Assembly: GCA_003208875.1 (NCBI GenBank)
Contig: QCUR01000003.1
Location: 1 to 64,000, forward strand
DNA length: 64,000 nucleotides
Direction of reading: 5' to 3'
Source of the DNA: Prochlorococcus sp. AG-679-M23
Lineage (GTDB): Bacteria > Cyanobacteriota > Cyanobacteriia > PCC-6307 > Cyanobiaceae
Part shown: positions 17,350-24,908 of the stretch, in pieces
How positions within the stretch are numbered: the stretch's first letter is position 1
Layout of the letters: the number at the start of each line of letters is the position of its first letter
Made by a program: the position numbers and the translations under genes
Notes under the pieces: model-generated
Databases searched by the model: none
What the model was told of the DNA's origin: nothing
Seen by the model: the letters and a program-made list of their open reading frames with translations, nothing else

Positions 17350-18138
17350 TTAAAATTTATTTCCAATTTTTGGAATTATTAGAGAAGCAACGCAAATAAC
17401 GCTTATAGCAGGACCAGGAGATAAGTTAAAAACAATTGAAAGAATAAAACCCAATAGAGAAATACAAAGTCCAAAGAATGAAGATCTCAACATTGCAATC
17501 CTGAGACTTTGTGCTTTATCAAGTCCTAATAAAGTAGGTGTTGAGAGTAATGCAATTACTAAAATTACTCCAACAGCTGACATTGAACTAACGATAACTA
17601 ATGCAGTAGTGAAACTTAGAGCCAAGTTTAATAAGGACACATTTATTCCACTAGCTGAGGCGCCCTCTGGATCTAATCCGACATATACAACTTTTTCATA
17701 TCCGAATGTTATTAATAAAATAAATGTTAGAAAAGCAATAATTGTTCTTAACAAATCGCTAAGATTTGCGGTTAATAAATCCCCAAATAAGACTGCCTCT
17801 AAATCAATTCTTATCCCAAGAAGTGGAATTAGTAAAACTCCAAAACCCAGCATGCCAGCAAGAATTGTATTCATTACCGCTTCATAATTTTCACTTTTTT
17901 TATTAGTTAAACTCTCTGCAACAATTGAACCAACAAGACCACTAATAACTCCTCCAATTGAGGGATGAATACCTAGAGCTAAAGCGAGAGCAAGACCAGG
18001 TAATACACAGTGAGAAATTAAATTTACTTGTAATAATCGTCTATGCGTAATCAATACTGTTCCCATAGCTGGGCATAAGATTCCAGAAAAAATAGTAATT
18101 ATTAAAGGAATTAACCACCAGTTGTTTAAATAAGACAT
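17350..18138 (-). CDS. Zn/Mn ABC transporter permease (ZnuB-like)
   Basis: ABC-3 family: ISHCVLPGLAL, LFGDLL, VGVILVIALL. Confidence 0.92.
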   Translation of the reverse strand: MSYLNNWWLIPLIITIFSGILCPAMGTVLITHRRLLQVNLISHCVLPGLALALALGIHPSIGGVISGLVGSIVAESLTNKKSENYEAVMNTILAGMLGFGVLLIPLLGIRIDLEAVLFGDLLTANLSDLLRTIIAFLTFILLITFGYEKVVYVGLDPEGASASGINVSLLNLALSFTTALVIVSSMSAVGVILVIALLSTPTLLGLDKAQSLRIAMLRSSFFGLCISLLGFILSIVFNLSPGPAISVICVASLIIPKIGNKF

Positions 18139-18185: not shown

Positions 18186-18590
18186 TTGAAAATGATGGTA
18201 ACCAAGCCTGACATTACCAAAAGACAAGAGCAACTTCTTGAAGAACTTAAAAAATGTGATGATGAATTGAGTGGTCAAGAATTGCATAGGCAATTGATTA
18301 TCGATGGCAAATCTATGGGTTTGACAACAGTTTATAGAAATCTTCAAGTTCTTATAAAACATGGATTAATTCGATCTAGACATCTACCAACAGGTGAGGT
18401 ACTTTACACTCCTGTTGATAGAGATATTCACCATCTGACATGTGTTCAATGTGGAGAAACCTCCAAAATGGAAGGTTGTCCGGTAAAAGATATTCATAGT
18501 CCAAAGAAAAACCCAAAAAAATTTCAACTTTTGTTTCATACACTTGAATATTTCGGCCTTTGCCAAAACTGTTATCAAGCTCAGAGTTAA
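18186..18590 (+). CDS. zur: Fur-family zinc uptake regulator
   Basis: GLTTVYRNL, HHLTCVQCG, FHTLEYFGLCQNC; sits within a Zn uptake cluster. Confidence 0.85.
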   Translation: MKMMVTKPDITKRQEQLLEELKKCDDELSGQELHRQLIIDGKSMGLTTVYRNLQVLIKHGLIRSRHLPTGEVLYTPVDRDIHHLTCVQCGETSKMEGCPVKDIHSPKKNPKKFQLLFHTLEYFGLCQNCYQAQS

Positions 18591-18604: not shown

Positions 18605-19375
18605 TTAATCACAAGTATTATTTTCTTTTAAAGAACTAATATTAAGATCATCCAATTTGCTTTGTATTGAATTGGGAGTTCCGGATGCTAATACTGTTTT
18701 ATCTAACACAACTACATGATCATAACTATTGAGAGATGAGCCCCAATCATGACTACTTATAAACAAAGCTAAGCCTGCATCTGCAAGTTGACGGACTATC
18801 TTAAGAAAATCATCTTTTGCGGGAGGATCTAATGCAGCACATGGTTCATCTAGCAGAAGAATTCTTGCAGGAGACATTAAAGTTTTAGCCAAAAGTGCTC
18901 TTTGTTGTTGTCCACCTGAAAGAGAATCAAGTCTTCTATTTGCAAGATTTGAAATGCCAACTCTTTGCATTGTTGCTTCCAATTCGCAACATTTATTAAC
19001 CCAAGACTTTGGATTTGCGAGAAGAGCCTTTATTTGGAATGGATTAGTATTTTTTGATTTTGAATATTTTATTTGACCTAATGAGACTAATTTTTCAACA
19101 GTAATAGGAAATTTCCAATTCATTGAGCTTCTTTGTGGCATAAGTGCAACCTGGGATCTAGTTCTAACTAAACTTTCACCATCAATAGTTATATCTCCAA
19201 TATCAGGATTATTTTGTCCTTGCAATAATTTCAAAAGAGTTGATTTACCAGCACCATTTGGTCCAACAAGAGCAGTCAATGTTCCTGGTTTTATTTGAAC
19301 TGAAACCTTATTTAAAGCTGGCTTGCTTTGTTTTGAATAAGAATAAGTTAAATTATCTGCAATTAAAGTAGCCAT
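18605..19375 (-). CDS. Zn/Mn ABC transporter ATPase (ZnuC-like)
   Basis: GPNGAGKST, LSGGQQQR, LLLDEP, SSHD. Confidence 0.92.
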   Translation of the reverse strand: MATLIADNLTYSYSKQSKPALNKVSVQIKPGTLTALVGPNGAGKSTLLKLLQGQNNPDIGDITIDGESLVRTRSQVALMPQRSSMNWKFPITVEKLVSLGQIKYSKSKNTNPFQIKALLANPKSWVNKCCELEATMQRVGISNLANRRLDSLSGGQQQRALLAKTLMSPARILLLDEPCAALDPPAKDDFLKIVRQLADAGLALFISSHDWGSSLNSYDHVVVLDKTVLASGTPNSIQSKLDDLNISSLKENNTCD

Positions 19376-19475
19376 TAATGAATATACTTAAATCAGTTAG
19401 ACCTTTATTTTATCAATATTAAGGAATCCATACTTATTTCATAACAATTGATACCAAATATTGACGTTAATTATG

Positions 19476-19492
19476 AAAATGATTATCATTTT
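19476..19492. promoter_or_regulatory. Zur box
   Basis: Perfect 8-1-8 palindrome AAAATGAT-T-ATCATTTT between the divergent ATPase and binding-protein genes. Confidence 0.85.
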
Positions 19493-19514
19493 AAATATTT
19501 AACGAATTTATTGA

Positions 19515-21008
19515 ATGTCGATTTTTAAAAAAGTAATTTTAAGTAATAAGAGATCTAATCATTCTTCTGTTATCAAAAACACTTTATTAGCTGGAACCGT
19601 ATTACTATCAGCAGTTGGTCAAGATGTTTTAGCGAAAGAAAAATCATATGTAGCTGTAGAGCCACTCACTTGCGATTTAGTAAAATCTATTGCCTTACCT
19701 TCTGATGAAGTAACCTGTTTGGTTGATAGAAAACAAGATGTACATGACTTAAAAATAACTCCAAGACAAGCTCAATTACTTAACAGTGCAGATAAAGTTT
19801 TTACTCTAGGGAAAGAGATGACCCCAAGCATGAAAAATTGGGAGGGTAAGCCTCAAACAGTTGTAATTGGGGTAAGTGCGATAGATGTAGATGACCACTC
19901 AGATCATGGTGGGCATGATGACCATGATGATCACTCTGCGGCAAAAGTAGATGACCATGATGATCACGCTGGACATGATGATCATGCAGAAGGTTCATTT
20001 GAATGGGCAGGCAAATTTCAACTCTCTAAAGGTTCCTACAAATGGTCATTTGCAAAGGTAGGAGGGGAATATGCAGATCCAGCTATGAAAATGGTGATTC
20101 TCGAATCAAATGATATTGAATCTTCTGAAGAACTTGCTAAAGAACTATTAGGTTCTAAGAAGTCAATAAATAAAAAAAATAATGGGACTCTTGTAGCTAG
20201 TAATAAAGCCTATGTTCTTAATTTTGATCAAGGGAAGGAAAGTACAGTATTTAATGTAGAAATTCAAGAAGATGGCCAATATACATTCTTCACTGAACAT
20301 ATGCCTTTTGAGTTTGAAGCCGAAGAACACTTCTTTAAAGATTTATCTAATAGCGATGTTGAACCAATTGCACAAGTTCCAGATGAAGGTGAGGGACATC
20401 ACCACCATGATCACGGAGGATTAGATCCTCATGTTTGGCATGATCCTCATAACATTATAAAGATGGGTGAAGTTGTAAGTAAAAGTTTAAAGAAAGATAT
20501 CTCTGTTTTTAATAGATCTGACAGGAAATCAATCAATTCGAGCTTTGCTTCAGTAGATTCAATACTAGAAGAACTCGATAGCTGGATTGTTGCACAGGTC
20601 TCAACAATTCCAGAATCAAACAGAGTTATTGTATCTAAACATAAAGCAATGGAATATTACGGCGATGCTTTTGGATTTGAGACTATTAGCTTACTAGATT
20701 TTCTTGGTGACTCATCAAGTCTAAGACCTGACAATATTCAATCAACGTTGAAGATGCTTGATGAAGAAAATGTTAAGGCAATATTTCCTGAACAAATACC
20801 AGCTTCTAAGTTATTAAAAAACTTGTCTAGACAAAGTTCAGTTCCTTTAGCTTCTAATCAAATATTTGTTGATGGATTAATGATGACAGGGAATACAGTT
20901 TCAGTTGCAGTTCACAATACATGTACCATTGTTAATTCCTTAGGTGGAACATGTGATAAGGAAGCAGGCTCCAGCATTGAAGGCACCTGGATTTCTCTAC
21001 AAAATTAA
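19515..21008 (+). CDS. Zn ABC transporter substrate-binding protein (ZnuA-like) with His/Asp-rich loop and large inserted domain
   Basis: DVHD, DPHVWHDP motifs, His-rich tracts, 497 aa. Confidence 0.92.
   Translation: MSIFKKVILSNKRSNHSSVIKNTLLAGTVLLSAVGQDVLAKEKSYVAVEPLTCDLVKSIALPSDEVTCLVDRKQDVHDLKITPRQAQLLNSADKVFTLGKEMTPSMKNWEGKPQTVVIGVSAIDVDDHSDHGGHDDHDDHSAAKVDDHDDHAGHDDHAEGSFEWAGKFQLSKGSYKWSFAKVGGEYADPAMKMVILESNDIESSEELAKELLGSKKSINKKNNGTLVASNKAYVLNFDQGKESTVFNVEIQEDGQYTFFTEHMPFEFEAEEHFFKDLSNSDVEPIAQVPDEGEGHHHHDHGGLDPHVWHDPHNIIKMGEVVSKSLKKDISVFNRSDRKSINSSFASVDSILEELDSWIVAQVSTIPESNRVIVSKHKAMEYYGDAFGFETISLLDFLGDSSSLRPDNIQSTLKMLDEENVKAIFPEQIPASKLLKNLSRQSSVPLASNQIFVDGLMMTGNTVSVAVHNTCTIVNSLGGTCDKEAGSSIEGTWISLQN
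19887..19990 (+). repeat. imperfect 60-bp tandem duplication encoding the His/Asp loop
   Basis: gtagatgacca at 19887 and 19947; catgatga at 19914 and 19974. Confidence 0.75.
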
Positions 21009-21019
21009 ACTTTTCCATA

Positions 21020-21038
21020 GATAACGGTTTTCATTATC
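21020..21038. promoter_or_regulatory. possible second, degenerate Zur box
   Basis: GATAACGGTTTTCATTATC upstream of the COG0523 gene; about 3 mismatches to the AnAATGATnATCATTnT pattern. Confidence 0.45.
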
Positions 21039-21094
21039 AAAGAATGTCTAGTATATTGATTGGTGGACATTATTTTAATTAGATCAATTAATAG

Positions 21095-22453
21095 ATGAGT
21101 ATCAACGAAAAAGTTCCTGTTACAATCCTTACTGGATTCCTAGGCTCAGGTAAAACAACTCTACTTAATAGAATACTAAGTGAAGAGCATGGTAAGAGAA
21201 TAGCTGTTATTGAAAATGAATACGGTGAAGTTGGAATAGATCAAGGTCTTGTAATAAATGCCGATGAAGAAGTATTTGAAATGTCTAATGGTTGCATTTG
21301 TTGTACTGTTCGCGGAGATCTTATTAGAGTCCTTGGTAATTTGATGAAAAGAAGAGATAAGTTTGACTATGTACTGGTTGAAACAACAGGATTAGCTGAC
21401 CCTGGTCCTGTTGCACAAACATTTTTTATGGATGAAGAAATTAGTTCTGAATTCACACTTGATGGAATAGTTACATTAGTTGATGCAGCTCATATTGATC
21501 AACAACTTGGACGTAGTGATGAGAGTTCTGAACAAGTGGCATTTGCAGATGTCTTAGTTCTCAATAAAACTGATTTAGTCTCAGATGATGCTCTTGATAA
21601 CCTTGAATCAAGATTAAGAGATATGAATCGTATGACTCGTATTATTCGAGCGGAGAAAGCAGAGGTCCCTATTGAGACAGTTTTAAATTTGAGTGCATTT
21701 GATCTTGACCAAATGCTAAAGCGTAGACCAACTTTTTTAGAGCCTGAATATCCTTTTGAATGGTCAGGAGTTTACGAACTTGAGACTGGAAAATATGAGT
21801 TGCAACTTCAAGAAGGGCCTGATCCTGAAATGTCTTTAGTAGCATTTGCTAATCAAGGTTTTAGTGAGGAAGAATTAAAGAAGGGTGCTGAAGCTTCTGT
21901 AAGATTGTATGCTGAAAAAGCTAAAAACTTAGAACCTGGAAATACTATTCCATATGATGAGCATGTAAGTCTTAAATTGCAAAAAAAAGGGTCTAAATCT
22001 TTTATTTTGGATGTAGAAAAAGCTTCAAAAGTTGGATTGTATACACAACATACTGCTGAAGAATTCAATATGAAAGTGCTAAAAATAGATGCCCAAAATA
22101 ATGTAGTTGAAATTCCTTTTAAAACTGAAAGGAAATGGGTCGCAGAACATGAACATGATGACGAAGTTGGATCAATTGCTATAGAGCGTTTTGGAGATGT
22201 TGATCCTGAAAAATTGAATACTTGGATGGGAAGACTTCTCTCCGAGAAAGGAGTAGATATATTCAGGACAAAAGGGTTTATTAGTTATTCTGGCAACCCA
22301 CGACGAATAGTATTTCAAGGAGTTCATATGTTATTTACTGCCCAACCAGATAAAGAATGGGGAAATGAACCACGAAGAAATCAACTCGTGTTTATTGGAA
22401 GAAACCTAGATGAAAAAGAGATGCAAGAGGGATTTGATAAGTGCCTGATATAG
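21095..22453 (+). CDS. COG0523/CobW-family G3E GTPase metallochaperone with inserted domain
   Basis: GFLGSGKTT, ENEYG, GCICC, ETTG, NKTD; CobW_C (RTKG, FQGV, VFIGR). Confidence 0.93.
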   Translation: MSINEKVPVTILTGFLGSGKTTLLNRILSEEHGKRIAVIENEYGEVGIDQGLVINADEEVFEMSNGCICCTVRGDLIRVLGNLMKRRDKFDYVLVETTGLADPGPVAQTFFMDEEISSEFTLDGIVTLVDAAHIDQQLGRSDESSEQVAFADVLVLNKTDLVSDDALDNLESRLRDMNRMTRIIRAEKAEVPIETVLNLSAFDLDQMLKRRPTFLEPEYPFEWSGVYELETGKYELQLQEGPDPEMSLVAFANQGFSEEELKKGAEASVRLYAEKAKNLEPGNTIPYDEHVSLKLQKKGSKSFILDVEKASKVGLYTQHTAEEFNMKVLKIDAQNNVVEIPFKTERKWVAEHEHDDEVGSIAIERFGDVDPEKLNTWMGRLLSEKGVDIFRTKGFISYSGNPRRIVFQGVHMLFTAQPDKEWGNEPRRNQLVFIGRNLDEKEMQEGFDKCLI

Positions 22454-23499
22454 AACCTTTTAGCCCTAGAGGTATGTTTCATGAGGGATGGTCTGCGGAA
22501 GTTGATGATTATGCAATAGTTTGTGGCTGGGCTTTAGGAGGTAAACTCTTTATCGTTGGAGATGTTGTCGGAGGGCTTTATGGATTCGAAGGAGATACAG
22601 GTAAGCTTTTTTGGAAAAAAGATGAAGCCCATTCAGGAGGTCTTCTTGCAATGTCTATTCATCCGAATGGAGAGATTTTTGCAACTTCTGGACAAGACGG
22701 AATAGTTCGAATATTAAATTGCAATAATGGGGAAGAAATTAAAGCCATTAAACTTGGTAAAGGTTGGGTAGAACATTTAAGTTGGTCAAATGGCGGTTTA
22801 TATTTAGCCATAGCTTTTTCCAAAAAAGTATATGTATTTAATCAAGATGGTAATGAACAATGGGTTTCAGAAGAACATCCAAGTACGGTAAGTGCAATAT
22901 CGTGGTCGAATAAAAATGAATTAGCAACTGCATGCTACGGACGAGTAACTTTCTTTGACGTAGCAAATAAAAAGACCAATCAGAAACTTGAATGGCAAGG
23001 CTCACTAGTGTCGATGAAGTTAAGCCCTGATGGAGATATAGTAGCCTGTGGTAGTCAAGATAATTCAGTACATTTCTGGCGTAGATCAACTGGACAAGAT
23101 GCCGAAATGACAGGTTATCCTGGAAAGCCTTCTCACCTTTCATTTGACGATACTGGCATGCTATTAGCAACAAGTGGTAGCGAAAGAATTACAGTATGGA
23201 GTTTTTCAGGTAATGGCCCAGAAGGAACTATGCCTGGAGAATTATGTCATCATACTGAACCAATTTCTAGCCTAGCTTTTTCTAACAAAGGTTTGCTAGT
23301 TGCTTCAGGTTCAAGAGATGGTTCAGTCGTAGCTAGTTTTCTAAAAAACGATGGGAACGGTGATCCTGTTGGGGCTGCATTTGCTGGAGATTTAGTTGGA
23401 AATATTGCTTGGAGACCAGATGACTGCGCTTTAGCTGCAATTAATGCAAAGGGTGTTGTAAAAGTTTGGAATTTCAAAGTACGTACTAGTACTTTTTAA
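22441..23499 (+). CDS. WD40 repeat beta-propeller protein
   Basis: Repeated ATSGQDG/ACGSQDNSVHFW/ASGSRDG; overlaps the COG0523 stop codon. Confidence 0.9.
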   Translation: MPDIEPFSPRGMFHEGWSAEVDDYAIVCGWALGGKLFIVGDVVGGLYGFEGDTGKLFWKKDEAHSGGLLAMSIHPNGEIFATSGQDGIVRILNCNNGEEIKAIKLGKGWVEHLSWSNGGLYLAIAFSKKVYVFNQDGNEQWVSEEHPSTVSAISWSNKNELATACYGRVTFFDVANKKTNQKLEWQGSLVSMKLSPDGDIVACGSQDNSVHFWRRSTGQDAEMTGYPGKPSHLSFDDTGMLLATSGSERITVWSFSGNGPEGTMPGELCHHTEPISSLAFSNKGLLVASGSRDGSVVASFLKNDGNGDPVGAAFAGDLVGNIAWRPDDCALAAINAKGVVKVWNFKVRTSTF

Positions 23500-23899
23500 A
23501 CAAGATTTAAATAATTACTAGCTTTTAAATTTACCAATAATTAGTTTTCAAATGTCTCTCCATACAAATCACTTCGCAATCATTATCAATACCTTTTGGA
23601 TGAATATCACAATATGAAAGACATTGTAAATATTCATCCACGGGATTATTAATATCATTATTATGATTATTTTGAATTTTTGAATTAGTCATAAATAGAT
23701 TTCCTCAATTCATTTAGGGTTAACATAAACGAGAGAGATAAGAAAAGAAATAAGCAAAACTTACTAAAAAACTAAACAAGAACTATATAAAATTTAAAGC
23801 GTAAAATAAACAAATTGATTATTACTATCGAACATTTTGGATTAAAAATCAATGCGTATAAAAACGGATTGTTTTTTTAAAAGTTTTTAATTAATTTGT

Positions 23900-24581: not shown

Positions 24582-24908
24582 ATGAATAATTACTATTGTC
24601 CATACTGTAATCCCAAATATCAATTTCAAAAAAAATCAACATCTGGAGAATTAATATGTGGGTTATGTGGTGACCCTTTAGTAAAAAAACCATTGATTAA
24701 AATTAATCAAATAATTGCTATTATTGCCTCCCTATCGCTAGTACTTCCATTGATTTACACGTTTATTATTTTAATTAAAAACCAAATAAATCCTCCTAAT
24801 AGAAACTACAATGCAAGTACAAATTTTATCGAGAAAAATTTAAAAACAAGATTTTTTCAACCTCTACAAAGTGATTTACTTAAACAAGAATCATCATCTT
24901 CAATTTGA
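24582..24908 (+). CDS. Zn-ribbon plus TM protein
   Basis: CPYC...CGLC followed by a hydrophobic helix. Confidence 0.7.
   Translation: MNNYYCPYCNPKYQFQKKSTSGELICGLCGDPLVKKPLIKINQIIAIIASLSLVLPLIYTFIILIKNQINPPNRNYNASTNFIEKNLKTRFFQPLQSDLLKQESSSSI

Follow-up and report, generated by a model that had tools for sequence, protein, structure and literature searches.

An Unnamed Domain in the ZnuA and COG0523 Proteins of a Prochlorococcus Zinc Locus, a Candidate Module for Metal Capture and Hand-Off

Why would two neighboring proteins, one expected outside and the other inside the cytoplasmic membrane, carry the same extra stretch of sequence? The question is raised by a zinc locus of Prochlorococcus sp. 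AG-679-M23, within a 64,000-nucleotide stretch of contig QCUR01000003.1 (here called the window; G+C content, ~23 to 36%). In it, znuA (19515 to 21008, plus strand), which encodes the metal-binding protein of an ATP-binding cassette (ABC) importer, precedes a gene for a COG0523 GTPase (21095 to 22453, plus strand). A preliminary description of the window had proposed that an uncharacterized domain is inserted in both proteins. Our results show that both inserts are copies of one unnamed domain of ~130 residues, predicted to fold autonomously as a beta-sandwich, whose role is probably to capture a transition metal and hand it on.

One domain in two neighboring proteins

Both hosts belong to known families. 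The ZnuA protein (497 amino acids) matches Pfam ZnuA (PF01297; E = 1.2e-41) with 143.4 bits against a gathering cutoff of 29, in two stretches with the insert between them, and begins with a hydrophobic, presumably signal-like stretch. The COG0523 protein (452 amino acids) matches Pfam cobW (PF02492; 207.2 bits; E = 2e-61; residues 8 to 184) and CobW_C (PF07683; 88.1 bits; E = 3.5e-25; residues 359 to 451), and its translation holds the P-loop GFLGSGKTT and the motif GCICC, which places it among the COG0523 G3E GTPases. The ZnuA copy of the domain spans 19998 to 20393 and the COG0523 copy spans 21755 to 22150, both on the plus strand and each counted from the F of an FEW motif. The strings first quoted for the inserts are all present in the translations: SFEWAGKFQLSKGSYKW, ADPAMKMV, and FFTEHMPFEF in ZnuA and PFEWSGVYELETGKYEL, PDPEMSLV, and LYTQHTAEEF, followed by EHEHDD, in the COG0523 protein. 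The flanks are also as described. In ZnuA, a 38-residue His/Asp-rich tract (residues 124 to 161; 19884 to 19997, plus strand; DVDDHSDHGGHDDHDDHSAAKVDDHDDHAGHDDHAEGS in the translation) precedes the insert, and a second His-rich tract with the stretch GHHHHDH (20382 to 20420, plus strand; DEGEGHHHHDHGG) follows it, overlapping the final residues of the profile match. In the COG0523 protein, the insert lies between the GTPase and CobW_C domains.

The claim that the two inserts are the same domain was borne out by sequence, profile, and model comparisons alike. BLASTP aligned them with an E value of 5e-7 and 32 of 113 residues identical (28%), and when the whole proteins were compared, the insert pair was the sole significant local match (E = 3e-6). 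A six-frame search of the 1.65-Mb source genome returned, for each insert, only the other insert as a further match at E < 0.01. Comparison by hhalign of a profile of ZnuA, ZIP, and CbiM copies with a profile of COG0523 copies, the latter drawn from eight or more lineages, gave a probability of 99.4% (E = 8.7e-22; 115 columns). The shared motif reads F-E-W-x-G ... D-P-x-M ... T-x-H-x-P-x-E-F.

Alignment to solved relatives located both insertion points. Residues 4 to 214 and 216 to 313 of Escherichia coli YjiA align to residues 7 to 214 and 348 to 447 of the COG0523 protein (E = 3e-62), and YjiA has nothing between 214 and 216. The N-lobe (residues 43 to 109) and C-lobe (residues 287 to 459) of the window ZnuA align to solved Protein Data Bank (PDB) relatives, all of which lack the insert, and the GHHHHDH stretch aligns with the His-rich loop of AztC (PDB 5w56). 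Because the lobes and this stretch align in this way, the domain and the His/Asp tract before it are taken to occupy the position of the ZnuA-family His-rich loop. According to these alignments and to Barnett et al. 2012 (Front Microbiol 3:142, PMC3323870), both insertion sites are positions where the ZnuA and COG0523 families usually hold His-rich metal-binding stretches. The statement that neither family normally has such an insert therefore holds for the solved members (YjiA and the solved ZnuA-family chains) but not for the families at large, since large subfamilies of both carry it.

Predicted fold, host range, and partners

AlphaFold2 modeled the ZnuA copy from a mixed alignment with a predicted local distance difference test score (pLDDT) of 90.3 and a predicted template modeling score (pTM) of 0.84, and the COG0523 copy from an alignment of COG0523 copies only with a pLDDT of 93.3 and a pTM of 0.86. 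Likeness of the two models was judged by the order of their elements and by common fold matches. Element order is equal in both: a two-strand hairpin, a third strand after a D-P turn, a helix of 13 to 15 residues, and five or six strands. In the C-terminal part of both models, a short helical turn directly follows the conserved His, and two or three terminal strands come after it. The top fold matches common to the two models are 1o6u_A, 6eon_A, 1nc7_A, 4mgq_A, 5azw_B, and 3mx0_C.

Database comparisons placed the domain in no known family. Neither insert matched a family in Pfam-A (2025 copy) or NCBIfam 20.0 at E < 0.01, and none of 15 aligned copies scanned singly against these collections reached the cutoff, the best match being CBM_35 (E = 0.018), found in 2 of the 15. 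An hmmsearch of 177,635 distinct PDB sequences with the 15-sequence profile gave no match at E values up to 10, and Foldseek gave no match in the PDB at E values up to 0.001. When the models were compared with 48,161 PDB chains by VIA-align, the best Z was 4.5 for the ZnuA copy (root mean square deviation [RMSD], 2.8; 81 residues aligned) and 5.8 for the COG0523 copy (RMSD, 3.2; 86 aligned), both of which fall below the background of Z ~7 to 8 for models without relatives. These weak matches include the GOLD domain of supernatant protein factor, carbohydrate-binding modules (CBMs; CBM35 chains), and an Eph ligand-binding domain. The nearest protein-atlas clusters, which we treat as leads only, are annotated "hypothetical protein" and come from Myxococcota (0.95) and Haptophyta (0.85).

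The resemblance to carbohydrate-binding jelly rolls, with CBM35 chains among the weak fold matches and the subthreshold CBM_35 match, might suggest a pocket for a small metal chelate (a metallophore, a metal-histidine complex, or a complex with a natural organic ligand) rather than for a bare ion. Marine zinc and cobalt are largely bound to organic ligands. We regard this explanation as highly improbable: the matches are weak and generic (Z under 6), the domain is also used in the cytoplasm (on COG0523 proteins and a transporter tail), where such ligands are not expected, and no genes for biosynthesis or uptake of a chelator were seen in the loci examined, in a scan aimed only at Znu, Zur, COG0523, and WD40 relatives.

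One line of evidence for capture and hand-off of a metal is the company that the domain keeps. A search of 1.84 billion cluster representatives (50% identity) with the 15-sequence profile returned 735 representatives at E values up to 0.001, of which 321 had E values up to 1e-10. Host families were assigned by a Pfam scan of the best 150 of the 735. The hosts among these were COG0523 proteins with cobW and/or CobW_C (33), ZnuA (28), ZIP proteins with the domain N-terminal and often present twice (15), membrane fusion proteins of the CusB/HlyD_D23 type (4), and one each of CbtA, CbiM, and a cation-diffusion facilitator (CDF) of Paenibacillus solisilvae, with the domain after the cytoplasmic dimerization domain; the other 67 had no Pfam partner. 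All Pfam-identified hosts among the best 150 are thus transition-metal trafficking proteins. Many of the 67 partnerless copies are fragments, but some represent intact short proteins in which a lipobox is followed by an acidic or His-rich linker, then the domain, and finally a His-rich tail; these standalone forms look like metal-binding lipoproteins.

The range of hosts agrees with the idea, put forward in the preliminary description, of a mobile module used on both sides of the membrane. The ZnuA, ZIP N-terminal, CusB-like, and lipoprotein copies are expected to be periplasmic or extracellular, and the COG0523 and CDF C-terminal copies are expected to be cytoplasmic. Similar repeats in algal ZIP transporters, mentioned in the preliminary description, proved to be real: ZIP proteins with one or two N-terminal copies occur in the dinoflagellates Prorocentrum cordatum and Amphidinium carterae, in the euglenid Eutreptiella gymnastica, and among MMETSP transcripts, and a protein of the diatom Corethron hystrix that belongs to no Pfam family also matches the domain profile.

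Presence on importers (ZIP and ZnuA) as well as exporters (CDF and CusB-like) would also suit a general load sensor, that is, a metal-binding sensor or brake that, once loaded, alters its host by closing the ZnuA cleft, by gating transport through ZIP or CDF proteins, or by adjusting the activity of the COG0523 GTPase. For the His-rich loop of ZnuA, a comparable role has been put forward, with a regulatory function reportedly announced in the title of a 2007 paper by Wei and coworkers. The sensor draws on the same context evidence as metal hand-off (host range, conserved residues, and His-rich flanks). We think it unlikely, considering that the standalone lipoproteins have no host to regulate and that the two or three tandem copies in some ZnuA and ZIP proteins are better suited to capacity or capture.

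Within the source phylum, the domain was found in 23 of 401 genomes. All 9 genomes sampled from the genus have it (8 with both copies and 1 in which the COG0523 copy alone was seen), as do three sister genera, with both copies. Eight further matching genomes belong to other families, and in all 3 loci that were opened among these, a WD40 gene comes after the COG0523 form. A COG0523-type pattern, built from a 5-sequence alignment, was run against one genome per prokaryotic species, and 265 of 269 stretches were confirmed. All of the best 80 loci are COG0523 hosts, so the scan is silent on the frequency of other hosts. The best 80 of the 265 loci come from Poribacteria (50), Chloroflexota, Planctomycetota, Acidobacteriota, Verrucomicrobiota, Sericytochromatia, a Rubrobacteraceae genome, and an Alcaligenaceae genome, and ZnuA-, ZnuC-, ZnuB-, or Fur-like open reading frames (ORFs) are often near them. 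A Chloroflexales locus (L081) was considered as a second case of both genes with the domain, but its ZnuA-like ORF match is partial and weak (E = 0.0018; profile positions 6 to 46), and we do not claim it.

A regular neighbor of the COG0523 form is a WD40 beta-propeller gene. In the window, this gene (22441 to 23499, plus strand; Pfam WD40, E = 1.8e-25) overlaps the end of the COG0523 gene by 13 bases, and 74 of the best 80 loci, in at least seven phyla, have a WD40-like ORF in the same orientation. In two nonphotosynthetic cyanobacterial relatives (L021, 10 to 831; L026, 2787 to 3293), the COG0523-WD40 pair adjoins a membrane protein. Judged by eye, the motif RHGLDPDH in one of these is nickel/cobalt-transporter-like, and the motif HEIPQEFSD in the other is ZIP-like.

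So close a pairing raises the alternative that the domain is a docking or spacer module with no metal site of its own, which would bind the WD40 partner or a client in COG0523 proteins and a membrane partner in the periplasm, its conserved residues being structural. The nearest folds are binding modules (GOLD, Eph ligand-binding, and CBM domains), which fits, and the WD40 gene follows the COG0523 form in Sericytochromatia, Chloroflexota, Poribacteria, Planctomycetota, Acidobacteriota, Verrucomicrobiota, and others. A complex prediction for the WD40 protein and the COG0523 copy of the domain scored 0.00 against a mark of 0.32, which says nothing either way. Docking is nevertheless quite unlikely in our judgment. 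Metal trafficking is the only trait common to all identified hosts, across compartments and partners; no WD40 partner accompanies the periplasmic and eukaryotic hosts; a set of invariant Glu, Asp, His, and Glu residues is not what a purely structural role usually calls for; and stretches rich in His occur more often next to the domain than elsewhere in the same proteins.

Phylogenetic analysis of 139 near-full-length copies (138 alignment columns) left many forks open but split the domain into two halves, with a Shimodaira-Hasegawa-like approximate likelihood ratio test (SH-aLRT) support of 85 on each side. All 25 COG0523 copies fall in one half (subfamily I, the COG0523 type), together with the CDF copy and the 4 CusB-like copies; all 31 ZnuA and all 22 ZIP copies fall in the other (subfamily II, the ZnuA/ZIP type), along with those of CbiM and CbtA. 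Copies of the ZnuA type share additional conserved acidic residues (an E after E-F, and D-x-E-P) and a second His. The window ZnuA copy groups with ZnuA copies and the window COG0523 copy with COG0523 copies. Because they fall in opposite deep halves of the tree, they are old paralogues that share one putative operon, with no recent jump between neighbors.

Copy number varies in ZnuA. The window protein has a single domain copy and the 38-residue His/Asp tract, most Prochlorococcus ZnuA relatives of ~612 amino acids have two tandem copies and a short non-His leader, and an 816-amino-acid ZnuA representative has three matched stretches. Metatranscriptome contigs have loose ends within the His-tract region (~19950 to 19981), which suggests length variants of this region between strains. 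Two further records were noted. In one genome (G358; L018/L031), the ZnuA frame is open for 873 amino acids and encodes two identical domain copies, each with a following His tract, 969 bases apart, which reflects either a large internal gene duplication or an assembly artifact. In the other, Prochlorococcus record P0124 (526 amino acids), an N terminus of the DUF1400 type (precomputed PF07176) is fused to what would be the latter half of a ZnuA with two copies; a chimeric gene call or a misassembly may account for this record.

Conserved residues and a candidate metal site

Conservation was determined over 177 copies, with residues numbered as in the window ZnuA insert. The most conserved positions are H101 (99%), E2 (97%), E105 (96%), F106 (96%), W3 (95%), G5 (92%), D27 (88%), P103 (86%), and M30 (80%), and E2, W3, G5, D27, H101, E105, and F106 are kept within every host class. 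Of the Glu, Asp, Met, and His ligands suggested earlier, E, D, and H are the best-conserved polar residues across the family, and only the Met, present in just 80% of copies, loses ground. Among the 68 copies that extend far enough, 99% have a further His just past the domain. Counted within 30 residues of the domain, 4 or more His are present in 68 of 172 copies, compared to 54 of 1,487 control windows elsewhere in the same proteins.

The insert also stands out within ZnuA. The window protein and the noncyanobacterial ZnuA P0137 are 66% identical in the insert and 36% identical over the whole protein (160 of 442 residues); outside the insert, by subtraction, roughly a quarter of the residues are identical. 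P0137 has a twin-arginine-like signal. On the basis of the 66% versus 36% identity, the insert would be the most constrained part of ZnuA. Two explanations are possible for the likeness to P0137: the domain is under very strong constraint, or the insert has passed from one lineage to another.

We consider it probable, though well short of certain, that the domain is a module for metal capture and hand-off, with a divalent ion, zinc and perhaps cobalt, as the metal. That a metal is bound, which metal it is, which ligands hold it, and in which direction it is passed are all features that we infer from context and conservation. The candidate site would consist of E2, D27, H101, and E105, helped by the flexible His-rich tracts beside the domain, which may feed it. 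By strand order, the conserved residues immediately precede strands 1 and 3 and immediately follow strand 8, and they may meet at one end of the sandwich. The domain would capture metal there and pass it to the host protein's own site. In ZnuA, positioned within the His-rich loop at the mouth of the cleft, it could widen and sharpen periplasmic capture of a scarce metal. In the COG0523 protein, placed at the interdomain hinge and followed by the invariant His, it might hold metal for the chaperone site or take metal from it. Zinc is the most likely metal given the Zur, ZnuA, and ZIP context, and the occurrence of the domain on CbtA and CbiM makes cobalt or nickel possible. Cobalt is required by Prochlorococcus.

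Several observations weigh against metal capture and hand-off. No solved metal-binding fold matches the models, the best matches being generic jelly-roll, GOLD, and CBM-like domains at the Z values of 4.5 to 5.8 given above, and 104 of the 172 copies lack His-rich flanks. A set of Glu, Asp, His, and Glu is not a classic high-affinity zinc site, and the tight pairing of the COG0523 form with the WD40 gene could mean protein docking. The Zur-box-like match upstream of znuA (described below) is not above chance by count (one match versus 2.13 expected with up to 2 mismatches), so that only its position counts.

The zinc locus and related systems

The genes around the two hosts are those of a zinc uptake locus. 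Upstream lie a znuB-like ABC permease gene (17350 to 18138, minus strand; a 262-amino-acid ORF named from its position in the locus and from its use as a BLAST reference that matched ZnuB-like ORFs in related loci), a Fur-family regulator gene, presumed zur (18186 to 18590, plus strand; Pfam FUR PF01475, E = 1e-18), and a znuC-like ABC ATPase gene (18605 to 19375, minus strand; a 256-amino-acid ORF with the Walker A motif GPNGAGKST), which is divergent from znuA. The regulator presumably senses zinc, given its place in this locus and the account of Barnett et al. 2012. About 1 kb downstream of the zinc locus, a 108-amino-acid ORF (24582 to 24908, plus strand) starts with two CxxC pairs (CPYC ... 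CGLC), which are zinc-ribbon-like, and continues with a hydrophobic stretch.

A promoter scan upstream of znuA returned TTGACG-17-TATCAT (10 of 12 positions), and the -10 element of this promoter-like site (19461 to 19489, plus strand) overlaps a Zur-box-like 7-1-7 palindrome, TGAAAATGATTATCA (19474 to 19488), located between the divergent znuC and znuA genes. The palindrome is the sole match in the window, with 1 mismatch, to a Fur/Zur-box consensus. Its position agrees with that described for Prochlorococcus by Barnett et al. 2012 (PMC3323870) and with the layout in Synechococcus WH8102 (Mikhaylina et al. 2022, PMC9337993). Control of the locus by Zur is suggested rather than shown by the adjacent Fur-family gene and this single palindrome. 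In one genome (G354), the COG0523 form and the WD40 gene are present with no znuA within the 10 kb examined, and the arrangement in the window could not be tied to the Zur-regulated synw0968-0973 cluster as presented by Mikhaylina et al. 2022. Because no plus-strand terminator-like site was found within 19300 to 23800, the znuA, COG0523, and WD40 genes may form one unit. Contigs from RNA libraries of four seawater studies cover 29 to 30 of 30 bins over 19400 to 23600 and bridge both gene junctions. This coverage is compatible with expression but is no proof of it, as contigs cannot show a single transcript and DNA carryover is possible.

One of the two inserts has been seen before. Barnett et al. 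2012 (PMC3323870) described a non-His insert of ~150 amino acids in cyanobacterial COG0523 proteins of "branch 1a," which adjoin a WD-40 gene, predicted four to six strands and one or two helices in it, and suggested that it is a domain of its own with no InterPro match. This is the same object as the window COG0523 copy. The COG0523 insert had thus already been noticed as a possible extra domain. As far as examined, Barnett et al. 2012 mention neither a counterpart in ZnuA nor the motif, nor any spread to ZIP, CDF, CusB-like, CbtA/CbiM, and standalone proteins, other phyla, or algae. Beyond that paper, a literature search covering main-text passages found no description of the domain, of homology between ZnuA and COG0523 inserts, or of its wide spread. 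"FEWAG" led to unrelated papers only, and the passages located by term in the first 300,000 of the 605,994 characters of a 2024 Chem Rev review (PMC11672702) mention extra elements only inside the C-terminal domain.

The domain appears to be an unnamed family of a known general kind, the accessory metal-handling modules. The His-rich loop of the ZnuA/AztC proteins of cluster A-I (Synechocystis ZnuA; Paracoccus AztC, PDB 5w56) stands at the same position as the ZnuA insert and presumably shares its task, raising the local metal supply at the cleft, as given for the loop in the review PMC8786288. Whereas that loop is short, flexible, and disordered, the window ZnuA type has a predicted folded beta-sandwich of 130 residues with its own motif, in one to three copies. 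The ZinT-like domain fused to AdcA, ZrgA, Neisseria DUF4198/Zcp (PMC12663993), and PA4063 (PMC8561739) are likewise extra periplasmic metal-capture parts beside a ZnuA-type protein, often with His-rich tails. None of the ZinT/AdcA, ZrgA, and DUF4198 models in Pfam and NCBIfam matches the inserts. To our knowledge, no ZinT-like, ZrgA, DUF4198/Zcp, or PA4063 module occurs on cytoplasmic chaperones or exporters.

ZepA of Anabaena (PLoS Biol 2024, PMC10957091) resembles the hosts of the domain in its extracytoplasmic zinc handling, beta-sandwich domain, His-rich N terminus, and nearby COG0523 or ZnuA genes, and it is Zur regulated. As published, however, ZepA is a two-domain protein that ends in a PEP-CTERM tail and binds zinc at a site of the form H-X2-9-H-[FY]-H, and it occurs in 0.3% of bacterial genomes and not in eukaryotes. 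The site is absent from both window inserts: in the ZnuA insert, H101 and H111 are followed by FF and not by [FY]H, the COG0523 insert has no such His cluster, and neither has a PEP-CTERM tail. By this description (motif, two-domain build, and tail), ZepA is set apart from the domain, which is found on many hosts, including algal ZIP proteins. The diatom protein ZCRP-B (PMC9010474) was also considered as a relative and was set aside by description only, being described as NikA-like.

It is possible, though we would sooner doubt than believe it, that this is an ancient hand-off domain with its own Glu-Asp-His-Glu site, present in bacteria, probably archaea, and marine algae and placed on importers, exporters, and GTPase chaperones as one common mechanism for passing zinc or cobalt. 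The periplasmic ZnuA copy and the cytoplasmic COG0523 copy of Prochlorococcus would then stand at opposite ends of a relay that passes through the ZnuBC permease, and the number of copies on ZnuA (one to three) might adjust capture to the picomolar metal levels of the ocean.

No photosynthetic cell in the ocean is more abundant than Prochlorococcus, which lives with zinc and cobalt at picomolar levels. The domain, as the best-conserved part of its only presumably Zur-linked binding protein and one that recurs in the partner chaperone, in algal ZIP proteins, and in exporters, is a testable candidate for the missing capture or hand-off step. It would be a small, well-behaved structural target and could help to trace metal stress in metatranscriptomes from the ocean. 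A name for the family would give an annotation to several hundred clusters (735 representatives at 50% identity) that are now hypothetical. The COG0523 problem is sharpened as well: one large subfamily carries the domain and a fixed WD40 partner across at least seven phyla.

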